In this document: positions 16,369-56,624 of the stretch, piece after piece | How the letters are laid out: every line of letters begins with the position of its first letter | Position numbering within the stretch: position 1 is the first letter of the stretch | Sequence record: OQ446694.1 | Strand: one strand, 5' to 3' | Source: Escherichia phage Killian | DNA: 64,000 nt | Notes under the pieces: model-generated | The model's database searches: none | What the model was told of the DNA's origin: nothing | The model's input: the letters and a program-made list of their open reading frames with translations, nothing else | Made by a program: the position numbers and the translations under genes

Positions 16369-17787
16369 TTATGGATAGGTATAGATGATACCAGTTTCTA
16401 AAGCAGTTTTATGAATGATGTATCCATTACGTGATTCTTGAACATCAACTTCTGGATAGTCTTTCATCATCTTCTGAAGAGTGTAACGATGCAGGTAGTA
16501 TTTACTGTCTGGATCTTCAGTTTTCCAATCTTTACCTTCTTCGGTCATTTTTTGGATTTCATCCATAACCCACCAACCGCACCAGATATAAGCTGAAGTA
16601 CGATGTGGAAGAGGATGAACATAAGGCAATTCACCTTCTGGTTCCGGAGCAACTTTATCAGTTACCTGAACTTGGCCTGTTGCTTTAACTGTTTTACTAT
16701 CATAGTCGGTTGCTGTAACGACAGCAGTAACTTCAATAGTTTGACTTCCAATAGATGAGGTGTCAACGGTGTATACGTTAGTTGACCCTTCTACAGGAGA
16801 AGAATCTTTCTTCCATGAGTATTCGATTTGTGCTTCTTCTGGAGCATCAGTGACATTAGCCGTAAATGTAGCCGAAGCATCTTGCTGAACGTTAATAGAA
16901 GGAGGAGTCAATGTAACCTGCGGATTCATTGTCTTCTTATTAACTGTCAATGATACTTCATTAGAAGTAACTTCCTTTTCATTGTAATTTTCAGCCGTTA
17001 CTTGGGCTACACACTTAACTGTTTTAGCTCCAACTGTGGTAGGAGTATAGTTAAATGTAGTAGTAGTTTCTCCATCGACCAGAGAACCGTCAACATACCA
17101 CTGATACGTAGCAGACGCTCCTGGTGGCTGTGAATCCAAGGCAGCAGTAAATTGAACTGGGGTTCCAATTACTCCGGCAGCAGGATTAGCAGGAGTTACG
17201 GCTAACGTAGTTGTCTGTGTTTTCTTATTAACTGTTAATGATACTTCATTAGAAGTAACTGTTTTTGCGTCATAATCTGTTGCTGTTACTTGAGCTACAC
17301 ACTTGATTTTTTTAACTCCGCTTGTGTCAGGAGTGTAATTGAATGTAGCGTCAGTTGCTTCGTCTACAGGAGAACCGTCAACGTGCCATTGATACGTAGC
17401 GTTTGCACCTGATGGCTGTGAAGCTAAGGCAGCGGTAAATTCAATTGGAGTTCCAATCACTCCAGCATCAGGGCTACCAGGAGTTACAGCTAAAGTAGTT
17501 GTTTGTGTTTTATTTTTGACTGTGATAGTTGTCGTAGTTTCTGCTGTTTCAGGATCAGCTTCTGGAACTGTATTTGTTGCAACCACCTTAATAGTCTTTT
17601 GACCTGCAGGTCCTTTTAGTACATAGCTAAAAGTTGCTTCAGCTCCATCCTGTGGAACATTATCTACACTCCAAGCATAGGTAATAGTTCCACCTTCAGT
17701 TTGACCACTGGGTGTAGCAGTAAACTGCTTGGTTTCATCAATAACTCCTGTTGGGGTTTTAGGAGTTATATCAACTGTAAAAGTCAT
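16369..17787 (-). CDS. hoc: Highly immunogenic outer capsid protein Hoc, with an extra Ig-like domain
   Basis: 472 aa against 376 aa in T4; N- and C-termini match T4 Hoc; contains two about 96-aa near-identical Ig-like repeats. Confidence 0.9.
   Translation of the reverse strand: MTFTVDITPKTPTGVIDETKQFTATPSGQTEGGTITYAWSVDNVPQDGAEATFSYVLKGPAGQKTIKVVATNTVPEADPETAETTTTITVKNKTQTTTLAVTPGSPDAGVIGTPIEFTAALASQPSGANATYQWHVDGSPVDEATDATFNYTPDTSGVKKIKCVAQVTATDYDAKTVTSNEVSLTVNKKTQTTTLAVTPANPAAGVIGTPVQFTAALDSQPPGASATYQWYVDGSLVDGETTTTFNYTPTTVGAKTVKCVAQVTAENYNEKEVTSNEVSLTVNKKTMNPQVTLTPPSINVQQDASATFTANVTDAPEEAQIEYSWKKDSSPVEGSTNVYTVDTSSIGSQTIEVTAVVTATDYDSKTVKATGQVQVTDKVAPEPEGELPYVHPLPHRTSAYIWCGWWVMDEIQKMTEEGKDWKTEDPDSKYYLHRYTLQKMMKDYPEVDVQESRNGYIIHKTALETGIIYTYP
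16942..17517 (-). repeat. Tandem duplication of a 288-bp Ig-like domain unit inside hoc
   Basis: Protein repeats KNKTQTTTLAVTP...SNEVSLTV occur twice back to back; DNA shows the same about 40-nt string near 16930 and 17220. Confidence 0.85.
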
Positions 17788-17796
17788 AAGTTATCC

Positions 17797-18477
17797 TTAT
17801 TTTAATGTTACGAAAGAAGAATTGCGTGTTTCACGAATTAGAACTGATCCGTCACGATTAATGTAGTAAATTAAGCTAAATAAAGTTTGATGCGCAGACG
17901 CATGTTCAAAACTGGTTGGGCGAGATTTCCAATCTGGAGTTTCAGCAATCCATTGGTAAATCCACCAAGGAACAGTGCAGAATCCTGGATTTTTTCCAAT
18001 CAGCTGAAGATTTGGGCTAAAGTTTTCCGGAAGAGTAAATACAGACGGCTTTTCAGATTCAATAATCTCAGCTACAGCCTGTTCGAATTTTTCTTCAACA
18101 AAAGGAGTATCTTCAATCAAAACATCGGTATTTTCAGGAATTTTATCCGTTTCTACTACTTCAATTTTAATGTCAGATTTAACCGGAGAATCAATCAGAA
18201 GTGCTGCCTCTGGATTGACTTCTTCATCGTCATATTTTAATCCGTCTGCGGCATCAGCAGCATCGATTAAGTCTTTAATAGATAACCCATCAGTCTCTGG
18301 CATAGGTTCACTAGCGAGCTTCTGGAGGGCTTCTTCAATATCATTAACGATATTATCAAAAGATTTATTCTTTTTGACCTTTATACCAAACTGTTCAGCA
18401 TATTCAGCTAATTTAGCTTTAGCTTCTTTATTATCATCAAGAGCCTTCAGCTTTGCAATATAATCTTTATCTATCAT
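17797..18477 (-). CDS. inh: Inhibitor of prohead protease
   Basis: 226 aa, same length and position as T4 inh. Confidence 0.85.
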   Translation of the reverse strand: MIDKDYIAKLKALDDNKEAKAKLAEYAEQFGIKVKKNKSFDNIVNDIEEALQKLASEPMPETDGLSIKDLIDAADAADGLKYDDEEVNPEAALLIDSPVKSDIKIEVVETDKIPENTDVLIEDTPFVEEKFEQAVAEIIESEKPSVFTLPENFSPNLQLIGKNPGFCTVPWWIYQWIAETPDWKSRPTSFEHASAHQTLFSLIYYINRDGSVLIRETRNSSFVTLK

Positions 18478-18527
18478 AATATTTCCTCAGTATAAATATA
18501 GATATATTTATTACATGGTATTTAAAC

Positions 18528-20039
18528 ATGACTGACATTAAAGTACATTTTTATGATTTTAGTCACGTGAGAATTGATTGCGAAGAAAGTACATTTCATG
18601 AACTCCGTGATTTCTTTAGCTTTGAAGCTGATGGGTATCGTTTTAATCCGAAATACAAATATGGCCACTGGGATGGACGAATTCGTCTTTTAGATTATAA
18701 TCGCCTTCTTCCATTCGGTTTAGTCGGGCAAATTAAAAAGTTCTGTGATAACTTTGGCTATAAAGCCTGGATTGACCCGCAAATTAACGAAAAAGAAGAA
18801 TTATCAAGAAAAGATTTTGATGAATGGCTTTCTAAATTAGAAATCTATTCAGGAAATAAAAGAATTGAACCGCATTGGTATCAAAAAGATGCAGTGTTCG
18901 AAGGATTAGTTAATCGTCGTAGAATTCTTAATCTTCCAACATCCGCAGGTAAATCTTTAATTCAAGCTTTGCTCGCTCGGTATTATTTGGAAAATTATGA
19001 AGGCAAAATTCTTATCATTGTTCCAACAACTGCTCTGACAACTCAGATGGCTGATGACTTTGTTGACTATCGTTTATTCAGTCATGCAATGATAAAGAAA
19101 ATCGGCGGTGGAGCATCAAAAGATGATAAATATAAAAATGATGCACCGGTCGTTGTTGGTACATGGCAAACTGTAGTAAAACAACCAAAAGAATGGTTCT
19201 CACAGTTTGGAATGATGATGAATGATGAATGTCATCTTGCTACAGGAAAAAGTATTTCATCTATCATATCAGGTTTAAATAACTGTATGTTTAAATTTGG
19301 TTTGTCTGGTTCATTGCGCGATGGCAAAGCTAATATCATGCAGTATGTTGGAATGTTCGGTGAAATATTTAAGCCAGTAACGACCTCTAAATTAATGGAA
19401 GATGGACAAGTAACTGAGTTAAAAATTAATAGTATTTTTCTTCGCTATCCCGATGAGTTCACTACTAAATTAAAGGGAAAAACTTACCAAGAAGAAATAA
19501 AAATTATTACTGGGCTCAGTAAAAGAAATAAATGGATCGCTAAATTAGCTATTAAGCTTGCGCAAAAAGATGAAAATGCTTTTGTCATGTTTAAACACGT
19601 ATCGCACGGTAAAGCTATTTTCGATTTAATTAAAAATGAATACGATAAAGTTTATTACGTATCAGGGGAAGTTGATACCGAAACCCGCAATATAATGAAA
19701 ACCTTAGCTGAAAACGGTAAAGGAATAATTATAGTAGCTAGTTATGGTGTATTTTCTACCGGTATTTCAGTTAAAAATCTGCATCACGTTGTTTTAGCAC
19801 ACGGTGTTAAATCTAAAATTATTGTATTGCAAACAATAGGTCGCGTATTACGTAAGCATGGTTCTAAAACAATCGCAACAGTCTGGGACCTCATAGATGA
19901 CGCGGGCGTAGTTTCTAAATCAAAAACATCTTCTAAAAAATACTCGCATTTAAACTATCTTTTAAAACATGGACTTGATCGTATTCAGCGTTATGCTGAT
20001 GAGAAGTTTAATTATGTGATGAAAGAGGTTAAACTTTGA
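18528..20039 (+). CDS. uvsW: UvsW RNA-DNA / DNA helicase
   Basis: 503 aa; helicase motifs (DECH box, TSAGKS Walker A-like). Confidence 0.9.
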   Translation: MTDIKVHFYDFSHVRIDCEESTFHELRDFFSFEADGYRFNPKYKYGHWDGRIRLLDYNRLLPFGLVGQIKKFCDNFGYKAWIDPQINEKEELSRKDFDEWLSKLEIYSGNKRIEPHWYQKDAVFEGLVNRRRILNLPTSAGKSLIQALLARYYLENYEGKILIIVPTTALTTQMADDFVDYRLFSHAMIKKIGGGASKDDKYKNDAPVVVGTWQTVVKQPKEWFSQFGMMMNDECHLATGKSISSIISGLNNCMFKFGLSGSLRDGKANIMQYVGMFGEIFKPVTTSKLMEDGQVTELKINSIFLRYPDEFTTKLKGKTYQEEIKIITGLSKRNKWIAKLAIKLAQKDENAFVMFKHVSHGKAIFDLIKNEYDKVYYVSGEVDTETRNIMKTLAENGKGIIIVASYGVFSTGISVKNLHHVVLAHGVKSKIIVLQTIGRVLRKHGSKTIATVWDLIDDAGVVSKSKTSSKKYSHLNYLLKHGLDRIQRYADEKFNYVMKEVKL

Positions 20040-20728
20040 ATTATAAATTAATATATGATAATTTAATTAATAGAGCCCAGAATCGGGCTCGCCTTAATGG
20101 ATACACTGAAACTCATCATATAATTCCTAGATGTATGGGTGGTACAGATGATAAGTGTAATTTGGTAGAACTAACAGCTGAAGAGCATTTTATAGCTCAT
20201 AAACTTTTAGCTAAAATTCATCCAAACCATTACGGTATAATTAAAGCCGTTATATGTATGGGAATGAATTCAAATACTCATGAAAGACACGTTAATAAAT
20301 CTTACGCCTGGGAACGTCGTAAAATGGCAAAACTTCAATCAGGTGAAGGTAATCCATTTTACGGAAAACACCATACGGAAGAACATAAACAATATATGTC
20401 AAAACTCATGAAAAATCGTCCAATTACGTGGGGAAGTAAAATTAGTAAAACTAAAAGAATGAACCCAACAAAATGGACTGAAGAAGCTAAAAGATTGCAT
20501 TCTATCAATCAATCAGGTAAAAATAATGGCATGTATGGAAGGAAACATTCCGCTAAATCTATTCAGAAAATTAAAGATAACATGCCAGATAATTCAGGAG
20601 CTAATAACCCAGCTGCTAAACCTATAGAAGTAAATGGTGTTAAGTATAAATGCATGAAAGATGCTTCTAAAGCTACTGGATTATCAATGTACAAACTAAG
20701 AATACTTAGAAAAACAGTTAATTTATAA
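20036..20728 (+). CDS. HNH homing endonuclease, MobE-like, with NUMOD-like repeats
   Basis: N-terminus ...YTETHHIIPRCMGGTDDKCNLVELTAEEHFIAH closely parallels the mobE product at 47946-48587; apparent TTG start overlapping the uvsW stop with AGAGG about 8 nt upstream. Confidence 0.8.
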   Translation: MNYKLIYDNLINRAQNRARLNGYTETHHIIPRCMGGTDDKCNLVELTAEEHFIAHKLLAKIHPNHYGIIKAVICMGMNSNTHERHVNKSYAWERRKMAKLQSGEGNPFYGKHHTEEHKQYMSKLMKNRPITWGSKISKTKRMNPTKWTEEAKRLHSINQSGKNNGMYGRKHSAKSIQKIKDNMPDNSGANNPAAKPIEVNGVKYKCMKDASKATGLSMYKLRILRKTVNL

Positions 20729-20740
20729 GGGCTTCGGCCC
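20729..20740 (+). terminator. Small hairpin GGGC-TTCG-GCCC after the HNH gene
   Basis: 4-bp GC stem with tetraloop; weak; directly abuts the uvsW.1 ribosome-binding site. Confidence 0.3.
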
Positions 20741-20753
20741 TTTGGAGAAAAAG

Positions 20754-20984
20754 ATGTTACTAGAATTTAAACAATTTCTTTATGAAGCTTCTATTGATGA
20801 ATTTATGGGTAAAATTGCCTCTTGTCAAACAATAGAAGGTCTAGAAGAACTTGAAGCTTATTATAAGAAAAGAGTTAAAGAAACTGAATTAAAAGATACT
20901 GATGACATCTCAGTCAGAGATGCTTTGGCAGGAAAAAGAGCTGAATTAGAAGATTCAGACGATGAAGTAGAAGAAAACTTTTAA
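20754..20984 (+). CDS. uvsW.1: UvsW.1 small acidic helical protein
   Basis: 76 aa from the ATG at 20754 (track start 20742 is TTG), preceded by GGAG; acidic; T4 UvsW.1 is 76 aa. Confidence 0.7.
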   Translation: MLLEFKQFLYEASIDEFMGKIASCQTIEGLEELEAYYKKRVKETELKDTDDISVRDALAGKRAELEDSDDEVEENF

Positions 20985-46770: not shown

Positions 46771-47949
46771 TTAAAAATATTTTTTAAAACTCATCATAAC
46801 TTTATCATCAACATCATTATCAATCTGTGCAACAAGGTAAGATGACAGTTCTACTTCTTGTGGCGCGGATTGAACATTATCAGAATTAAGATATTCACGA
46901 ATCCAAGGATATGGATGTTTAACCGGAGCATCGGTAATTGGGCATGGAAGACCGCACTGTTTCATACGAGATACAGTTAAGTAATCAATAAAGCTCCGCA
47001 TGCTATTTGTATTTAATCCAGGAACATCACCATCTTTAAATAAATGAACTGCCCAGTCTTTTTCTTGACGGTTAACTTCCATGAAAATATCAACTGCTTC
47101 TTGTTCACACTCTTGAGCAATTTTAACCCATTCATCGCCATCAGTACCGGATTGAAGTTGACGAATAATATATTGGGTGCCTTTAAGGTGAAGCTGCTCA
47201 TCACGTGCAATGAACTTCATAATCTTGGCATTACCTTCCATGATTTCCATGTTCTTATGGAAGTTAAAGGTACATGCAAAAGATACATAAAAACGAATAG
47301 CTTCTAAGGCATTAATAACGTGCAAACAGAGGTAAAGAGATTTCATTAGTGCTCGTTTAGCTTCGGCTTCTTGTTTAATAGCTCGATTTAAACGAAAAAC
47401 AGCATCAGGAGATTCTTTAGCTAGTTCTGTAAATTCTTTAGCATTTTCCCATTCACGGGTTTTAGTCAGAACATCATCATAATAGCGACCGATAGATTCA
47501 GCACGTTTCATGATAGCTTCATCTAGTACAATCTCATCAAATACCTTCGATGGATCAGTATAAAGATTTCGCATGATATGAGTATATGAACGACTGTGAA
47601 TAGTTTCACTAAAAGTCCATGTAGCAACCCATGTATCAAGACTTGGGTCTGAAATTAATGACATAAGTACAGCAGATGGCGCACGACCCTGAATGCTATC
47701 TAGAAGTGATTGATACTTCAGGTTATTAGTAAAAATATCTTGCTGATACTGAGGAAGCTTGTTAAATTGTGCAGCATCCATCATCAAGTTTACTTCTTCA
47801 GGACGCCAAAAAAATGATAAAGATTTCTCAATAAGTTCTTCAAATACTCTATGCCGTTGAATATCATATCGAGCTAAACCCAATCCAGAACCAAAAAACA
47901 TCGGCTCAGTTAAAATATTAACAGGGGATGTATTAAAAACTGTACTCAT
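46771..47949 (-). CDS. nrdB: Ribonucleotide reductase small subunit, intron-less
   Basis: 392 aa continuous ORF with di-iron ligand-type motifs; no interruption. Confidence 0.95.
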   Translation of the reverse strand: MSTVFNTSPVNILTEPMFFGSGLGLARYDIQRHRVFEELIEKSLSFFWRPEEVNLMMDAAQFNKLPQYQQDIFTNNLKYQSLLDSIQGRAPSAVLMSLISDPSLDTWVATWTFSETIHSRSYTHIMRNLYTDPSKVFDEIVLDEAIMKRAESIGRYYDDVLTKTREWENAKEFTELAKESPDAVFRLNRAIKQEAEAKRALMKSLYLCLHVINALEAIRFYVSFACTFNFHKNMEIMEGNAKIMKFIARDEQLHLKGTQYIIRQLQSGTDGDEWVKIAQECEQEAVDIFMEVNRQEKDWAVHLFKDGDVPGLNTNSMRSFIDYLTVSRMKQCGLPCPITDAPVKHPYPWIREYLNSDNVQSAPQEVELSSYLVAQIDNDVDDKVMMSFKKYF

Positions 47950-48587
47950 TTAGAATCCTTAAATTTACATTTATCATAATGCCATCTTAAAGCATTGCCT
48001 TTATTAACTTTCTTGCCACAATGCGGACAAGGCGGATACTCTGTACCTTGCTTAGTTCTCAAAGAGATCAAATCACGAGTTTCTTTAGTATGAGGAACAT
48101 CTCTTGTCGGAGAGATTGTACCATACATCGGATTAAGCACGCCGACTTTAGCAGCAGCTATATTCTTTTTAGCTTCTTCGGTTTTAGGTTTTCTCATGCG
48201 AGCTAAATGCTCTTTGGTAAATTTCCTTCCTTTAAGAGCTCTACTTATCTTTTCTCTGGTTTCTATAGAAACTTCACGTCCTATAGCAGCTTCAGATAAA
48301 CGTCGTCTACCTAATTCGTATAGTTGAGAAGAAATTTTATATGAGCGATTTTTACCAGTCAAGCACATTAAACCAAAAGCTTTCTTTAATCCTGGCGTGT
48401 CATATATTTTACATAAAAGCCAATGAGCTATAAAATGCTCTCTACCTGTTAATTCAACTAAATTTTCTTTATCATCAGAACCTCCCATACATCTAGGGAT
48501 TATATGATGAGTCTCTTTATATCCTAATAAAGGTTCCCGGGTTTTAGCCCGGGAAATTAAACTATTATATACGTTTTGATAATTCAT
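47946..48587 (-). CDS. mobE: HNH homing endonuclease MobE
   Basis: 213 aa; HNH motif ETHHIIPRCMGGSDDKENLVELTGREHFIAH; located between nrdA and nrdB as T4 mobE. Confidence 0.85.
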   Translation of the reverse strand: MNYQNVYNSLISRAKTREPLLGYKETHHIIPRCMGGSDDKENLVELTGREHFIAHWLLCKIYDTPGLKKAFGLMCLTGKNRSYKISSQLYELGRRRLSEAAIGREVSIETREKISRALKGRKFTKEHLARMRKPKTEEAKKNIAAAKVGVLNPMYGTISPTRDVPHTKETRDLISLRTKQGTEYPPCPHCGKKVNKGNALRWHYDKCKFKDSK

Positions 48588-50851
48588 TACAATTTACACG
48601 CTGCGCAATCTTCAGCTTTTGGAGTTTCTATTTCATAATCATCAGTACCAGAACCATCGCGGGTATTATGATAATAGAAATTTTTTCCGCCAAAATACCA
48701 AAAGTACAAAAGGTCATCAATCATTACAGACATTGGAACCTTTCCTTTTGGAAAAATCTGCGGGTCATAATATGTATTCGCTGAAGCTGATTGACATACC
48801 CATTTCAGCATAATAGCTACCTGCGTAAGATAAGGTTTATTACCTTTCTTAGCTAATTTCCACGTATAATCATAGAGGTCTATGTTATGTTCAATATTGG
48901 GCACGACTTGATTAAAGGAACCCTCTTTTGATTCTTTAACCGAGACTGGTCCACGTGGAGGCTCGATACCGTTTGTGCTGTTAGAAACTTGGGAAGATGA
49001 CTCACATGGCATAAGTGCTGATAATGTGCTATTACGGATGCCAAAGAGCTTAAGGTCTTCCCGCAGCGACGACCAGTCACAAACGTATTTTGGAGCTGCG
49101 ATTTGGTCAATCTTTTTATTGTACCAGTCGATAGGTAATTCGCCTCGAGACCAACGAGTGTCTGAATAATATTCGCAAGGTCCTTTTTCTTTGGCGAGCT
49201 TAATGGATGCTTTAATGAGTCCATACTGCAATCTCTCAAATAGTTCATGTGTTAAATCGTTAGCATCTTCATAAGAAGCAAAGTTACTTGCCAGCCAAGC
49301 TGCATAGTTAGTAACACCTACGCCAAGGTTTCGACGCTTTTTAGCTTTTTCTGCTTCAGGAACTGGATATCCTTGGTAATCCAACAGATTATCAAGAGCG
49401 CGAACTTGAACTTCTGCCAATTCATTAATTTTATCTTGGTCTTGCCAATCGAAGTTATCCAACACAAATGCAGATAACGTGCACAATCCAATTTCAGCAT
49501 CAGGACTATTCACATCATTTGTTGGAATAGCAATTTCACAACACAAGTTACTCTGACGAATAGGTGCCTTTTCACGAATAAACGGAGTATAGTTATTCGT
49601 ATTATCAATGAACTGTACATAAATCCTTGCTGTTCCTGATCGTTCAGTCATGAGCAATTCAAATAGTTCACGGGCTTTAATACGCTTTTTACGAATATTA
49701 GGATCTTTTTCTGCTGCTTCGTATAATTCACGGAAACGGTCTTGGTCTTTAAAATAAGAATAATAAAGTTCGCCACCCATTTCATGCGGACTAAACAAAG
49801 TAATGTAATCGTTCTTTCCGAATCGTTCCATCATTAGGTCATTCAGCTGAACACCATAATCCATATGACGGATACGGTTTTCTTCTACGCCTTTGTTATT
49901 TTTCAAAACGAGAAGATTTTCAACTTCCAAATGCCAAATAGGATAATAAGCAGTAGCAGCGCCGCCACGAATTCCGCCCTGTGAACATGATTTAACAGCA
50001 GTCTGAAAATGTTTCCAAAAAGGAATAACACCAGTATGACGCACTTCACCTGTGCCAATCTTAGAACCTTCGGCACGAATCATACCAACGTTAATACCAG
50101 TTCCAGCGCGTTTGGAGATATATTCAACAATTGAAGCAGAAGCTTTGTTAATAGACTTCAGCGAATCACCTGCTTCAATAACAACGCATGAACTAAACTG
50201 CCGAGTTGGAGTACGGCAACCAGCCATAATAGGAGTTGGTAATGAAATCTGTCGAGTAGATACTGCTTCATAAAAACGAATAACATGTTTTAATCTATCA
50301 ACAGGTTCATCTTGATGCAGTGCCATTCCAATAGTCATAAATGCAAACTGCGGAGTTTCATAAATTTGACCAGTGGTTTTATCTTTAACTAGATATTTTT
50401 CTTTTAATTGCATTGCCCCGGAATAAGTAAATTCCATATCCCGCTCATGCTTAATTTTTGATTCTAAAAATGTAATTTCTTCGGCAGAATATTTTGACAA
50501 CAATTCAGGGTCGTATTTACCTTCATTTACACAGTAAGAAATATGGTCAATAAATGAACGGGGCTCATACTGCCCGTAAACATGCTTACGAAGAGCGAAC
50601 ATTAAACAGCGTGCAGCTACATATTGATAATCAGGCTCTTCAACTGAAATAGAATTCGCGGCAGCCTTAATTACAATAGTTTGAATGTCATCAGTGGTCA
50701 TTCCATCACGGAGATATGATTTAATATTTTCATATAATTCATAAGGATCTACAGATGTTCCTTCAGCTGCCCAAGATAAAACTTTAATAATTTTTTGCGG
50801 GTCAAAGCTCTGAGAAACACCACTACTTTTGATAACATTAATTAATTGCAT
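48587..50851 (-). CDS. nrdA: Ribonucleotide reductase large subunit
   Basis: 754 aa, same as T4 NrdA; class I RNR motifs. Confidence 0.95.
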   Translation of the reverse strand: MQLINVIKSSGVSQSFDPQKIIKVLSWAAEGTSVDPYELYENIKSYLRDGMTTDDIQTIVIKAAANSISVEEPDYQYVAARCLMFALRKHVYGQYEPRSFIDHISYCVNEGKYDPELLSKYSAEEITFLESKIKHERDMEFTYSGAMQLKEKYLVKDKTTGQIYETPQFAFMTIGMALHQDEPVDRLKHVIRFYEAVSTRQISLPTPIMAGCRTPTRQFSSCVVIEAGDSLKSINKASASIVEYISKRAGTGINVGMIRAEGSKIGTGEVRHTGVIPFWKHFQTAVKSCSQGGIRGGAATAYYPIWHLEVENLLVLKNNKGVEENRIRHMDYGVQLNDLMMERFGKNDYITLFSPHEMGGELYYSYFKDQDRFRELYEAAEKDPNIRKKRIKARELFELLMTERSGTARIYVQFIDNTNNYTPFIREKAPIRQSNLCCEIAIPTNDVNSPDAEIGLCTLSAFVLDNFDWQDQDKINELAEVQVRALDNLLDYQGYPVPEAEKAKKRRNLGVGVTNYAAWLASNFASYEDANDLTHELFERLQYGLIKASIKLAKEKGPCEYYSDTRWSRGELPIDWYNKKIDQIAAPKYVCDWSSLREDLKLFGIRNSTLSALMPCESSSQVSNSTNGIEPPRGPVSVKESKEGSFNQVVPNIEHNIDLYDYTWKLAKKGNKPYLTQVAIMLKWVCQSASANTYYDPQIFPKGKVPMSVMIDDLLYFWYFGGKNFYYHNTRDGSGTDDYEIETPKAEDCAACKL

Positions 50852-54588: not shown

Positions 54589-54816
54589 TTATTGTTCGAT
54601 CAGTCCCATATAAAATTCTGCATCTTCAGAATCCATGCCATCACAGTATTCATTAGCCATAAAGCGGGTGAGGTCTTCAAGAGGACCTTCAATAACGATT
54701 TGAATACTCCAAAACTTAGAATCTTGTACATTTGTGATTATAAGTTCAGGATAACGATTACGAATAATTTCTTCAATATATTCAAAATCAACGATGTCAA
54801 TATCAACTTTAGCCAT
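54589..54816 (-). CDS. Hypothetical small acidic protein
   Basis: 75 aa from the internal ATG preceded by AAGAGGAAA; the longer track start (54942) would include the gene 32 terminator. Confidence 0.5.
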
Positions 54817-54910
54817 GTTATTTTCCTCTTTAATCATCAGCAGTATTGCCGATAGTTGTATAGTACCATAGAAGAACAGAGATGTAAACAGTTTTGTGAA
54901 AAAAATTTTG

Positions 54911-54940
54911 AAATAAAAAAAGGGGACCTCTAGGGTCCCC
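54911..54940 (-). terminator. Rho-independent terminator GGGGACC-TCTA-GGGTCCCC plus U-tract after gene 32
   Basis: 7 to 8-bp GC stem; plus-strand AAATAAAAAA gives a U-run after the hairpin on the minus strand. Confidence 0.7.
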
Positions 54941-54962
54941 AATTAATTAGTAATATAATCTA

Positions 54963-55871
54963 TTAAAGGTCATTCAAAAGGTCATCCAGGTCCGTGTCAT
55001 CAGCACTAGATGAACTGCCAGAGCTTGAGCTCATAAAATCATCTTCAGTTTTTGTTTTGAAGTCATCAACATTGAATGCATCCAAATCATCAGCAACTTT
55101 ATCAGCTTTCTTAGCAGCAGTTGCAGCGGCACCACCCATAGCAGCAGTTCCCATAACTTGACTGAACTTAGTGCTCAGTTCTTCAAACGATTTGAATTTA
55201 TCTTTAGAAGTCATTTCAGAAAGGTCAACCATTTGTTCGAACAGTTCTTTCTGGAAAGATTCATCATCAATGTTTGGAATCGCAGATTGATTCAGGAATT
55301 TAGATTCGTCGTAGTTACTAAAACCAGAAACTTGTTTAACTTTCAGTACAAAGTTAGCACCTTCCCACGGACAAGTTACATCAACCGGAGTTTCACCCAT
55401 TTCAACATCAACTGCAATCATTGCATTGATTTTATCCCAGATTTTCTTACCGAAACGGTATTTAAATACTTTACCTTCATTTTCTGGAGCAGCTGGGTCT
55501 TTTACTACAAGAATGTTAGCCCAGTAAGAAGTTTTACGTTTAACAAGACCATACTCTTTATTGTCAGTGTTGTACAAATCATTTTTACTGATGTACTGAC
55601 ATACTGGGCAAGAATCGTAATCACCGTGGGTAGATGAACAGTTTTCAATATACCATTTACCATTTTTCTTGAAACCGTGATTTACAAGAATTGCGAATGG
55701 TGCTTGTTCATCATTTTTAGACGGAAGAAAACGAATTACTGCTTGACCGTTACCCGCATTATCGAGTTTCAGTTTCCACTCGCCTTTATCTTCAGAAGAA
55801 AAACCACCTTTATTTCCAGCCAGTTTAGCCATTTGTGCAGCGAGTTCAGCAGTAGATTTACGTTTAAACAT
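54963..55871 (-). CDS. 32: Single-stranded DNA-binding protein gp32
   Basis: 302 aa; matches T4 gp32 including zinc-binding region and acidic C-terminal tail. Confidence 0.97.
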
Positions 55872-55950
55872 TTTTATTTCCTTTTTAATTTAATTAACAG
55901 TTGGTGCTATGACGATGTATGACCTCATAGCTGGTCAGTGAGATAATTAT
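55872..55950 (-). promoter_or_regulatory. Gene 32 mRNA leader with autoregulatory translational operator
   Basis: Minus-strand leader ends ...UUAAUUAAAUUAAAAAGGAAAUAAAAAUG, preceded by a GC-containing structured segment, as in the T4 gene 32 leader. Confidence 0.5.
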
Positions 55951-55954
55951 AATC

Positions 55955-55962
55955 TATTTATA
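55955..55962 (-). promoter_or_regulatory. Late promoter TATAAATA (minus strand) upstream of gene 32
   Basis: Plus-strand TATTTATA between the gene 59 stop and gene 32. Confidence 0.45.
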
Positions 55963-55970
55963 ATAAGCAA

Positions 55971-56624
55971 TTAGTACTTACAAGATTTCACAGTTTCAAT
56001 AAAAACATTTTTAGCTTTCTGTGAATCAATATTTAAAATTTTTCTATAAGCCTTTAACTTTATAGAATAATTATTCCAGACTAAATTATCAGTCTGTTCA
56101 TCATGTTTATCGATTATATTTAAAAACGAATCAAGCAAGATAAACGTCTCAAACGAAATTATATTCGATTGAAGTAGTTTAAAAATATAACTTGATTGAA
56201 CTTTTGGATTATATTCAAAAATTTCTTTAAAAGCAGAAACTTCAACTTTTTTACTAAAATAGTAAATATTGCGAATATCTTCTTCAAACTTAAATTTAAT
56301 TTGCTTTAAGCGTCCGATATATTCACGATAAAACACAAGTGCATCAGCGTCAGAAATGTCACCAATCCAAGCATCCTGGTTAGCAACAAGATTGCTTATA
56401 AAGATTAAAGCAAGTTCCTTTAATTTATATTTTTCTGATAACTTCTGGAAAAAATACTTATCCCTTCGCTTTTGATAAGCGGCATCAGACACCCGCATGC
56501 ACCAATTATACTTAATTACATCATACTTTCCATTCATATGTTGTTTTATCATTAAGTATAATTTATAAACTGATTTACCATCAATATATCTTTCACCACC
56601 AGCAGGCATGCGGAGTTTAATCAT
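55971..56624 (-). CDS. 59: Helicase loader gp59
   Basis: 217 aa, same as T4 gp59. Confidence 0.9.
   Translation of the reverse strand: MIKLRMPAGGERYIDGKSVYKLYLMIKQHMNGKYDVIKYNWCMRVSDAAYQKRRDKYFFQKLSEKYKLKELALIFISNLVANQDAWIGDISDADALVFYREYIGRLKQIKFKFEEDIRNIYYFSKKVEVSAFKEIFEYNPKVQSSYIFKLLQSNIISFETFILLDSFLNIIDKHDEQTDNLVWNNYSIKLKAYRKILNIDSQKAKNVFIETVKSCKY

Follow-up and report, generated by a model that had tools for sequence, protein, structure and literature searches.

The window analysed here, 64,000 nucleotides of Escherichia phage Killian (OQ446694.1), a T4/T6-like phage, contains two genes for HNH endonucleases of the same family, one at the nrdA/nrdB junction and one directly after uvsW. 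Are they recent copies of one catalytic cassette that was moved onto two different DNA-binding tails, or old members of a family in which such combinations are common? An earlier note on this DNA took the former view, and suggested that the two copies could act as sites of ectopic recombination. It identified the gene at 47946..48587 as mobE and placed a paralog next to uvsW, about 28 kb away. On this point the ORFs and a tblastn search of the window agree with it: there is exactly one mobE paralog, at 20036..20728 on the plus strand, and the two genes lie 28.5 kb apart on opposite strands.

The gene at the nrdA/nrdB junction (47946..48587, minus strand) is an intact ORF of 213 amino acids, a T6-type allele of the homing endonuclease gene mobE. 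It is free-standing, outside any intron or intein. Its ATG overlaps the stop codon of nrdA (48587..50851) in the sequence TAATGA, and its TGA overlaps the ATG of nrdB (46771..47949) in ATGA. Proteins with the annotation homing endonuclease or mobE in T6 and many Tequatroviruses share 95-97% identity with it. The nrdB gene of the window has no intron and no I-TevIII, and at codon 42 it reads AAA, like the nrdB of phages that carry mobE.

By position this gene is the ortholog of T4 mobE (Wilson & Edgell 2009, PMC2790892). The two share the slot, the TAATGA overlap, the HNH head and a hairpin inside the 5' coding region, and the last 80 amino acids, including a CCHC motif, are ~99% identical. However, T4 MobE is longer (232 amino acids), the middle of the protein has diverged with a 17-residue indel, and the overall identity is 69%. 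For the T4 gene, site-specific nicking and super-Mendelian inheritance have been demonstrated: MobE causes a nick in the nrdB of phages without mobE, and repair by recombination copies mobE together with its flanks (PMC2790892).

The nuclease head of MobE (residues 1-62, HHIIPRCMGGSDDKENLVELTGREHFIAH; 48402..48587, minus strand) carries an HNH motif that scores above the curated Pfam cut-off of 21.4 bits (E=8.4e-5, 23.1 bits). In the AlphaFold model it consists of two strands (25-28 and 43-46) and a helix (48-61), with pLDDT >90. Two NUMOD3 stretches are found by Pfam (PF07460, E=9.1e-9): the best-scoring repeat at residues 103-121 (48225..48281, minus strand) and another one farther downstream. 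The CPHC...HYDKC element reported in the earlier note is present at the C-terminus as a CxxC...H...C motif (47967..48029, minus strand), whose residues C187, C190, H203 and C207 are invariant across 30 MobE-type sequences of 41-97% identity. The motif has weak matches to zinc fingers in Pfam, and a fold search with this region of the model, where confidence is low (pLDDT 47-70), gave no match. It is presumed to be a zinc-binding element for DNA targeting. A match to the I-TevI DNA-binding domain was sought for MobE by sequence and by fold, and none was found.

The second gene, of 230 amino acids (20036..20728, plus strand), lies between the helicase gene uvsW (18528..20039, plus strand, 503 codons) and uvsW.1 (20754..20984, plus strand, 76 amino acids). 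It starts at a TTG that overlaps the stop codon of uvsW (TTGA), and a GAGG ribosome-binding site lies 7 nt upstream (20025..20028, plus strand). It is the same gene as T6 ORF179 and as the "mobD" of Yersinia phage PST, with 97-98% protein identity and identical junctions. The names in the records are inconsistent: in T6 it is T6ORF179 or "homing endonuclease", in PST "mobD" with a note of MobE, and hypothetical protein and group I intron endonuclease are used as well. The gene is absent from the T4 genomes examined, including resequenced ones. A literature search found no paper that describes it or reports an activity for its product.

The head of this protein (residues 1-62; 20036..20221, plus strand) falls under the Pfam HNH cut-off (16.7 bits against 21.4), and its fold matches to HNH domains are weak. 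It keeps all residues that are invariant in the family, and the model has the same strand-strand-helix arrangement as MobE (pLDDT ~90). Pfam finds NUMOD3 (PF07460, E=1.3e-13, two stretches), with one repeat at residues 94-122 (20315..20401, plus strand) and a second, placed by eye, at 157-180 (about 20504..20575, plus strand). The NUMOD repeats that the earlier note ascribed to this protein thus exist, but they do not set it apart, as Pfam finds two in each protein.

The helix-turn-helix-like end that had been noticed is present too. Residues ~193-230 (20612..20725, plus strand) form a putative helix-turn-helix DNA-binding module of I-TevI type. Residues 157-216 align weakly (phmmer, E=0.006) to the minor-groove helix and helix-turn-helix of I-TevI in PDB entry 1I3J_A; the tail matches the Pfam family I-TevI_DNA-bd (PF20987) with E=0.03 and 14.7 bits, below the cut-off of 27; and the model, with strand-strand-helix-helix at 197-228, has 1i3j_A as its top Foldseek match in the PDB (probability 1.00, weak E=0.098). 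These are three independent weak matches, and all of them point to the same domain.

How similar are the two genes? The proteins align over 183 amino acids with 38% identity (BLASTP, E=2e-32). In the first 60 residues 42 are identical, i.e. 70%, in line with the 60-70% given before for the HNH region. The description of this region as near-identical does not hold. At the DNA level megablast gives no match between the genes, the only blastn match covers 182 nt with 74.7% identity (72% if the register is kept ungapped), and no exact run exceeds 19 nt. The nucleotide comparison, which the earlier note had proposed in the form of a dot-plot, therefore reveals distant similarity only, the outcome that it had linked to a shared ancient family rather than recent paralogy.

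Further, the similarity of the heads is not specific to this pair. Against MobE, the head of the uvsW-site protein has 41 of 58 identities. Against dozens of proteins with unrelated tails it has 40-45 of 57-58, and against its own orthologs in other genera 40-43. A head identity of 70-79% is common to dozens of family members with unrelated tails, and the likeness of the two heads is therefore better described as conservation throughout the family than as recent paralogy. When 25 members are aligned, hardly any gaps fall within the first ~100 residues, and the tails include CCHC fingers, NUMOD3 with helix-turn-helix, NUMOD1 and other Cys-rich ends. This supports a family built of a conserved HNH head joined to interchangeable DNA-binding tails, which is already textbook. 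The module shuffling proposed earlier can be kept for the family as a whole, but not as recent paralogy or as one cassette shared by these two loci. Both proteins consist of an HNH head of ~60-100 amino acids and two NUMOD3 repeats, and only the extreme C-termini differ. Having a finger-like CCHC element in one and an I-TevI-type helix-turn-helix in the other fits different target sites. Taken together, both genes are probably (we estimate roughly 0.85) free-standing T-even "Mob" HNH homing endonuclease genes that diverged anciently and belong to two separate homing sites, not the products of a recent duplication.

The borders of the gene at uvsW can be seen by comparison with phages that lack it. 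Over the final ~160 nt of uvsW, the divergence from the alleles without the endonuclease is 32-38%, against 0-3% among carriers. This recoded tract (19875..20039, plus strand) is linked to the endonuclease gene in alignments: it has 19-23 mismatches per 60 nt to T4T and L014, which lack the endonuclease, and 0-2 among carriers. It contains a strongly recoded patch at about 19883..19935 and gives uvsW the new terminus KEVKL*. Downstream, uvsW.1 is essentially identical to the alleles of endonuclease-less phages (0-3 mismatches per 60 nt). The divergent tract is hence sharply bounded and accompanies the gene, next to an identical downstream flank. The last five codons and stop of the endonuclease ORF, AAAACAGTTAATTTATAA (KTVNL*; 20711..20728, plus strand), match the uvsW terminus of resequenced T4 exactly. 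They represent the ancestral uvsW 3' end, and the insertion has its right edge here. The final codons of uvsW are imperfectly duplicated on the two sides of the insertion. Between the stop and uvsW.1 lies a hairpin, GGGCTTCGGCCC (20729..20740, plus strand), and T4 has the same one between uvsW and uvsW.1.

The T4 RefSeq shows a single uvsW of 587 amino acids, and an endonuclease that splits an intact uvsW, as in the nrdA of Aeh1 with its genes in pieces, was considered. It was rejected, as both Nolan et al. 2006 (PMC1524935) and the resequenced T4 genomes show that T4-like phages have two distinct ORFs here, uvsW and uvsW.1. The fusion in RefSeq is a frameshift error at a GC hairpin.

The uvsW-site gene has a patchy distribution. 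It is found in 48 of 502 related phage records, in all 48 with a protein that is at least 95% identical. Orthologs with 55-70% identity occupy the same slot between uvsW and uvsW.1 in Klebsiella phage Roth16, Escherichia phage PSD2002 and Morganella phage Rgz1, as well as in two metagenomic contigs. Counted separately, the N-terminal and C-terminal halves of the gene, its locus as one contiguous place with the flanks, and the uvsW tract are each found in 48 records (at least 95% identical, or contiguous); these four figures are equal tallies, not a comparison record by record. For the recoded tract, with at least 95% identity in 48 records, the tally equals that of the gene itself.

In general, the patchy distribution, the shared slot, the imperfect duplication at the insertion and the linked recoded tract make this gene look like a homing element, and uvsW is presumed to be its target. 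We infer that the target site lies in the recoded tract. It should be noted that Roth16 carries the gene and yet retains T4-like sequence in the most recoded patch, so this patch may not be the recognition site, or the specificity may vary between lineages. A possible course of events starts with the endonuclease being translated by coupling to uvsW, given the TTG start that overlaps the uvsW stop and the GAGG 7 nt upstream, and with a hairpin in its 5' coding region damping its expression. In a mixed infection, the enzyme would nick or cut uvsW at its 3' end, or at its junction with uvsW.1, in phages without the gene. Repair would then copy the gene along with the ~160-nt recoded end of uvsW, and this recoded end would shield the carrier from cleavage by its own enzyme.

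The expression of T4 mobE depends on transcription of nrdA and is attenuated by a hairpin in its 5' coding region, which has been shown experimentally to terminate ~30-50% of the transcripts (PMC2790892). In the window, mobE has a GC-rich hairpin at the place of this internal weak terminator (48534..48555, minus strand): TTCCCGGG-CTAAAA-CCCGGGAA, followed by CCTTTATT. With a stem of 8 bp and a loop of 6 nt, against 9 bp and 4 nt in T4, it scores as terminator-like, and no other 28-nt window within the first 330 nt folds more stably (-14.8 kcal/mol). The uvsW-site gene has one as well, GAGCCC-AGAATC-GGGCTC (20073..20090, plus strand), and here too it is unsurpassed in stability over the first 330 nt (-12.3 kcal/mol). 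It has no U-tract on the sense strand and may therefore not act as a terminator. Of 12 T4-like Mob-family genes, 11 have a GC-rich hairpin ~30 nt from the start of the ORF, where T4 mobE has its internal terminator; they come from three different insertion sites, and their stem sequences are unrelated. The hairpin as a feature of the entire family was rejected: 67 diverse members from viral metagenomes show no positional enrichment, and only six of them reach -9 kcal/mol at this position. In the sequences compared, the 5' hairpin is confined to the T4-like copies and rare in the wider family.

Could the two genes still be recent paralogs, one catalytic cassette on two tails, with the shared stretch mediating ectopic recombination? 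The 70% identity of the heads beside unrelated tails fits this, as does the agreement of third codon positions at conserved residues (32 of 42). However, many other family members are as close to the uvsW-site head as MobE is, and similarity at megablast level is lacking. T4 recombination reportedly needs roughly 50 bp of good homology (Singer et al. 1982), the longest exact run is 19 nt, and the stretch of ~180 nt at 72-75% is inverted between the genes. The equal tallies of gene halves, contiguous locus and uvsW tract also speak against it, although they were not compared record by record. The search for rearrangements between the loci in related genomes, which the earlier note had called for, revealed neither these nor chimeric alleles among the 48 carriers of the uvsW-site gene. 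One record, HY03, has discordant strands of the two loci. An inversion between the two genes was rejected here, as both endonuclease genes keep their normal neighbours, with uvsW and uvsW.1 still flanking the uvsW-site gene; the visible change of gene order lies past alt, at a distance of about 10 kb from this gene, and may be a misassembly or an unrelated rearrangement. All in all, we find recent paralogy with ectopic recombination highly improbable. Another reading, in which occasional gene conversion among co-resident Mob-family genes keeps their 5' ends and hairpins alike, draws on the identity profile: over the first ~200 nt there is little difference between paralogs and cross-genus orthologs (60-78%), and downstream of this the orthologs (55-74%) clearly exceed the paralogs (33-48%). 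The T4 and T6-type MobE are also mosaic themselves. Further, one metagenomic uvsW-site gene, P0004, has a mobE-like hairpin (21 of 24 nt), and over 70 nt it is 84% identical to mobE of the window, against 64-77% to other uvsW-site genes. The same profile is, however, expected if a short catalytic domain is under strong purifying selection and its synonymous sites are saturated. Within the window, the uvsW-site head resembles distant metagenomic proteins at least as closely as it does the mobE of the same genome, and the signal in P0004 spans only 70 nt of the most conserved motif. As a general account such conversion is quite unlikely, and for the likeness of the two heads in the window it was rejected as the main explanation, since proteins with unrelated tails are equally or more similar. 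In view of the mobE-like 5' end of P0004, mobE-type and uvsW-site genes may occasionally exchange sequence.

The uvsW-site gene might also have lost the ability to home and be a relic, either decaying or domesticated, perhaps kept for the exclusion of competitors or the regulation of uvsW and uvsW.1. It sits inside a conserved operon with both start and stop codon coupled, UFV-AREG1 (P0008) has a truncated version of 146 amino acids, and the literature search found no activity for the enzyme. Against this, the ORF is intact with its catalytic residues preserved, and the protein is conserved within the 48 records (at least 95%) as well as across genera in the same slot (55-70%). A distribution of 10% with a tightly linked flanking tract is, moreover, what active or recently active homing yields. 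We therefore regard the relic as unlikely. A more far-reaching reading of this gene, an active homing endonuclease with the ORF and the recoded 160-nt uvsW end as the mobile unit, is tentative and given slightly less than even odds; it includes the hairpin as a general brake on expression at the RNA level, occasionally swapped between loci together with the head, as P0004 hints.

To a large degree the finding is ordinary, as the modular construction of phage homing endonucleases was already known. NUMOD3 and helix-turn-helix modules form the modular tails of these enzymes. I-HmuI is an example with such a tail that is cited together with MobE (PMC2790892). The uvsW-site protein also has the extended two-part layout of I-TevI, with a nuclease head, a linker and a DNA-binding tail; the difference is that the head of I-TevI is GIY-YIG and this one is HNH. 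SegE (between inh and uvsW), SegF and SegG (PMC2988022) resemble the uvsW-site gene in being located between conserved genes, in their patchy occurrence and in the divergent flank that travels with them. However, the uvsW-site gene belongs to a different nuclease family and lies at the end of uvsW opposite to SegE, and unlike in the Seg systems its ORF makes use of the ancestral stop codon of uvsW and leaves uvsW with a new 3' terminus.

SegE is known to target uvsW at its 5' end (PMC2988022), and the window shows the corresponding dimorphism at this end. Homing elements seem to besiege uvsW from two sides, SegE from the 5' end and this HNH gene from the 3' end. If so, it would suit the study of competing homing elements and of co-conversion in a single gene. 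In the uvsW-site enzyme, a MobE-type head is combined with what appears to be an I-TevI-type tail, and the target of the enzyme is probably easy to map by crosses of T6 with T4. Finally, a hairpin that is conserved in position but variable in sequence suggests that the attenuation known from T4 mobE is a general adaptation of the family to T4-like hosts.

A tblastn search of the window with MobE finds a single true paralog, at 20036..20728 (plus strand). This uvsW-site gene encodes 230 aa from a TTG start that overlaps the uvsW stop; a GGGCTTCGGCCC hairpin follows it, and then uvsW.1. It lies 28.5 kb from mobE, on the opposite strand. On one side of mobE itself (47946..48587, minus strand, 213 aa) is nrdA (48587..50851), on the other nrdB (46771..47949), which is intron-less here. 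The nrdA stop and the mobE ATG overlap as TAATGA, a layout that the Edgell review (PMC2988022) reports for T4 mobE, and at the other end of the gene the TGA overlaps the ATG of nrdB. The genome is a Tequatrovirus (T4/T6-like): the nrdB-mobE-nrdA block is 94-96.5% identical to that of hundreds of such phages, and in T6 and many relatives there are proteins with the annotation homing endonuclease or mobE that share 95-97% identity with MobE. The group I intron and I-TevIII, both present in T4, are absent from the window nrdB. Its codon 42, where MobE nicking has been mapped, reads AAA, which is among the variants reported for mobE-carrying phages.

The two proteins share 38% identity over 183 aa (BLASTP, E=2e-32). 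In the first 60 residues 42 are identical, which agrees with the 60-70 percent given by the earlier note for the HNH region. However, its description of the N-termini as near-identical is not justified by the DNA: megablast finds no match between the two loci, blastn finds one of 182 nt with 74.7% identity (72% when compared in register without gaps), and no exact run exceeds 19 nt. At the nucleotide level the similarity is thus distant.

How should the resemblance of the heads be understood? For the 58-aa head of the uvsW-site protein, 120 database homologs served as the comparison. In dozens of homologs with unrelated tails 40-45 of 57-58 residues are identical, while its own orthologs in other genera share 40-43 and the co-resident MobE 41/58. 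Further, in a 25-member alignment the first ~100 residues are nearly gap-free and strongly conserved, and several unrelated tail types follow. Since proteins with unrelated tails are equally similar, the likeness of the two window heads, judged from these alignments, reflects conservation throughout the family. A recent paralogy, as implied by the proposed shuffling of one catalytic cassette, is therefore unsupported. The generic part of that proposal stands: the enzymes are indeed modular, but such a build was already established for Mob, Seg and intron endonucleases (PMC2988022; PMC2790892).

The C-termini do differ, although not by NUMOD repeats, which had been taken as a mark of the uvsW-site protein: Pfam finds two NUMOD3 repeats in both, and also HNH in both, with a score below the cut-off in the uvsW-site protein. 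MobE ends in a Cys/His motif (C187/C190/H203/C207), invariant across 30 MobE-type sequences. The uvsW-site protein probably has an I-TevI-like end: the I-TevI DNA-binding domain (PDB 1I3J) aligns with its residues 157-216 at E=0.006, and Pfam I-TevI_DNA-bd matches weakly. Its model (pLDDT 82.6) has a strand-strand-helix-helix arrangement, with 1i3j_A as the best PDB fold match. In the MobE model (pLDDT 80.1) the head is the same, while a fold search with the tail, a low-confidence region, gave no matches. Mosaicism is seen between mobE alleles. T4 MobE (L102, a record with T4 mobE, 2133-2831) is 69% identical to the T6-type MobE of the window: the last 80 aa agree at ~99% and the heads (first 60 aa) at ~80%, while the middle parts have diverged strongly and differ in length by 17 aa.

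The suggestion that the two copies could act as ectopic recombination sites finds no support. What homology there is amounts to ~180 nt at 72-75%, and the copies are inverted relative to each other. In the phage collection, the contiguous uvsW-endonuclease-uvsW.1 locus (one place, >=80% of query), the protein at >=95% identity, and the 5' 190 nt and the 3' 503 nt of the gene, each at >=95%, gave 48 records apiece. Compared as totals, these tallies match and offer no indication of chimeras or of halves moved elsewhere. One record, HY03, has the two endonuclease loci on discordant strands. The change of gene order in this record comes after alt, at ~10 kb from the uvsW-site gene, and the neighbours of either endonuclease gene are unchanged. 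The e/tk/nrdC/49/nrdD block after alt (KR269718.1, about 54600-56000) is inverted relative to T4; either a misassembly or a genuine rearrangement may lie behind this.

Exchange within the family is suggested weakly by the sequence of P0004, a metagenomic uvsW-site gene (L104, 421-560) whose 5' end is mobE-like. It is 84% identical to the window mobE over 70 nt, and 21/24 nt of the hairpins match. Thus 5' ends may sometimes be swapped, but this concerns P0004 and not the two window copies.

In each of the two window genes a GC-rich hairpin begins ~30 nt from the start of the ORF (20073..20090 in the uvsW-site gene, 48534..48555 in mobE), with unrelated stems. The T4 mobE hairpin has been shown by experiment to be a weak terminator. 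We compared 12 Mob-family genes of T4-like phages from three insertion sites (uvsW/uvsW.1, nrdA/nrdB and denA/rnlA; records including L008, L009, L011, L102 and L104-L109). In 11 of them no local structure within the first 330 nt is more stable than the one at +26..+38, with energies of -11.7 to -16.2 kcal/mol and stems unrelated in sequence. A structure of -9 kcal/mol or stronger occurs at that position in just 6 of 67 diverse viral-metagenome family members, without positional enrichment. The uvsW-site hairpins have no U-tract, and may therefore damp expression otherwise than by termination.

We rejected the idea that the uvsW-site gene splits an intact uvsW, as the single ORF of T4 RefSeq is a known sequence error. 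In resequenced T4 genomes 25 nt separate uvsW from the uvsW.1 that follows, and according to Nolan et al. 2006 two ORFs are present in every T4-like genome that was examined. The window (20711..20760) and resequenced T4 (L003, L005) read TTTATAAGGGCTTCGG where RefSeq reads TTTAATAAGCTTCGG, so the 587-aa fusion is a frameshift error at a GC hairpin; RefSeq (NC_000866.4, 3678-5441) still annotates it. In the junction alignment, the end of the endonuclease ORF, AAAACAGTTAATTTATAA (KTVNL*), is the ancestral uvsW end. The window uvsW carries a new end, AAAGAGGTTAAACTTTGA (KEVKL*), which provides GAGG 7 nt upstream of the TTG start. The PSD2002 junction has the same design, while in Roth16 and Rgz1 an ATG start overlaps the native uvsW stop.

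Elsewhere in this region, no segE separates inh (17797..18477) from uvsW (18528). The beginning of uvsW exists in two forms, with 15-16 mismatches per 60 nt over the first ~150 nt (window 18478..18680): T4, T6 and PST, which carry segE, have one form, and the window and records L013, L014 and L016 have the other. Beside inh, the hoc-position ORF (16369..17787, 472 aa) has visibly repeated segments; T4 Hoc (1131 nt, 376 aa) is about 95 aa shorter.

The uvsW-site gene is patchily distributed, in 48/502 records. The same slot holds an ortholog (55-70% identity) in Klebsiella phage Roth16, Escherichia phage PSD2002, Morganella phage Rgz1 and two metagenomic T4-like contigs. The window, T6, PST and two viral contigs, all carriers of the gene, were compared with T4T and L014, which lack it. 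In the final ~160 nt of uvsW these five show 19-23 mismatches per 60 nt to T4T and L014 but only 0-2 to one another; elsewhere in uvsW and in the downstream flank, divergence is nil or a few per cent. This recoded tract is >=95% identical in 48 records, the number that has the gene. Its most recoded patch need not be the recognition site, because Roth16 retains T4-like sequence there. We infer the activity and target site of the enzyme from such comparisons. Patchy presence, a fixed site across genera and a tightly linked recoded flank are together, at the sequence level, the footprint expected of a homing endonuclease. mobE is already known, and the uvsW-site gene is an annotated, yet unstudied, addition to a known kind of endonuclease.
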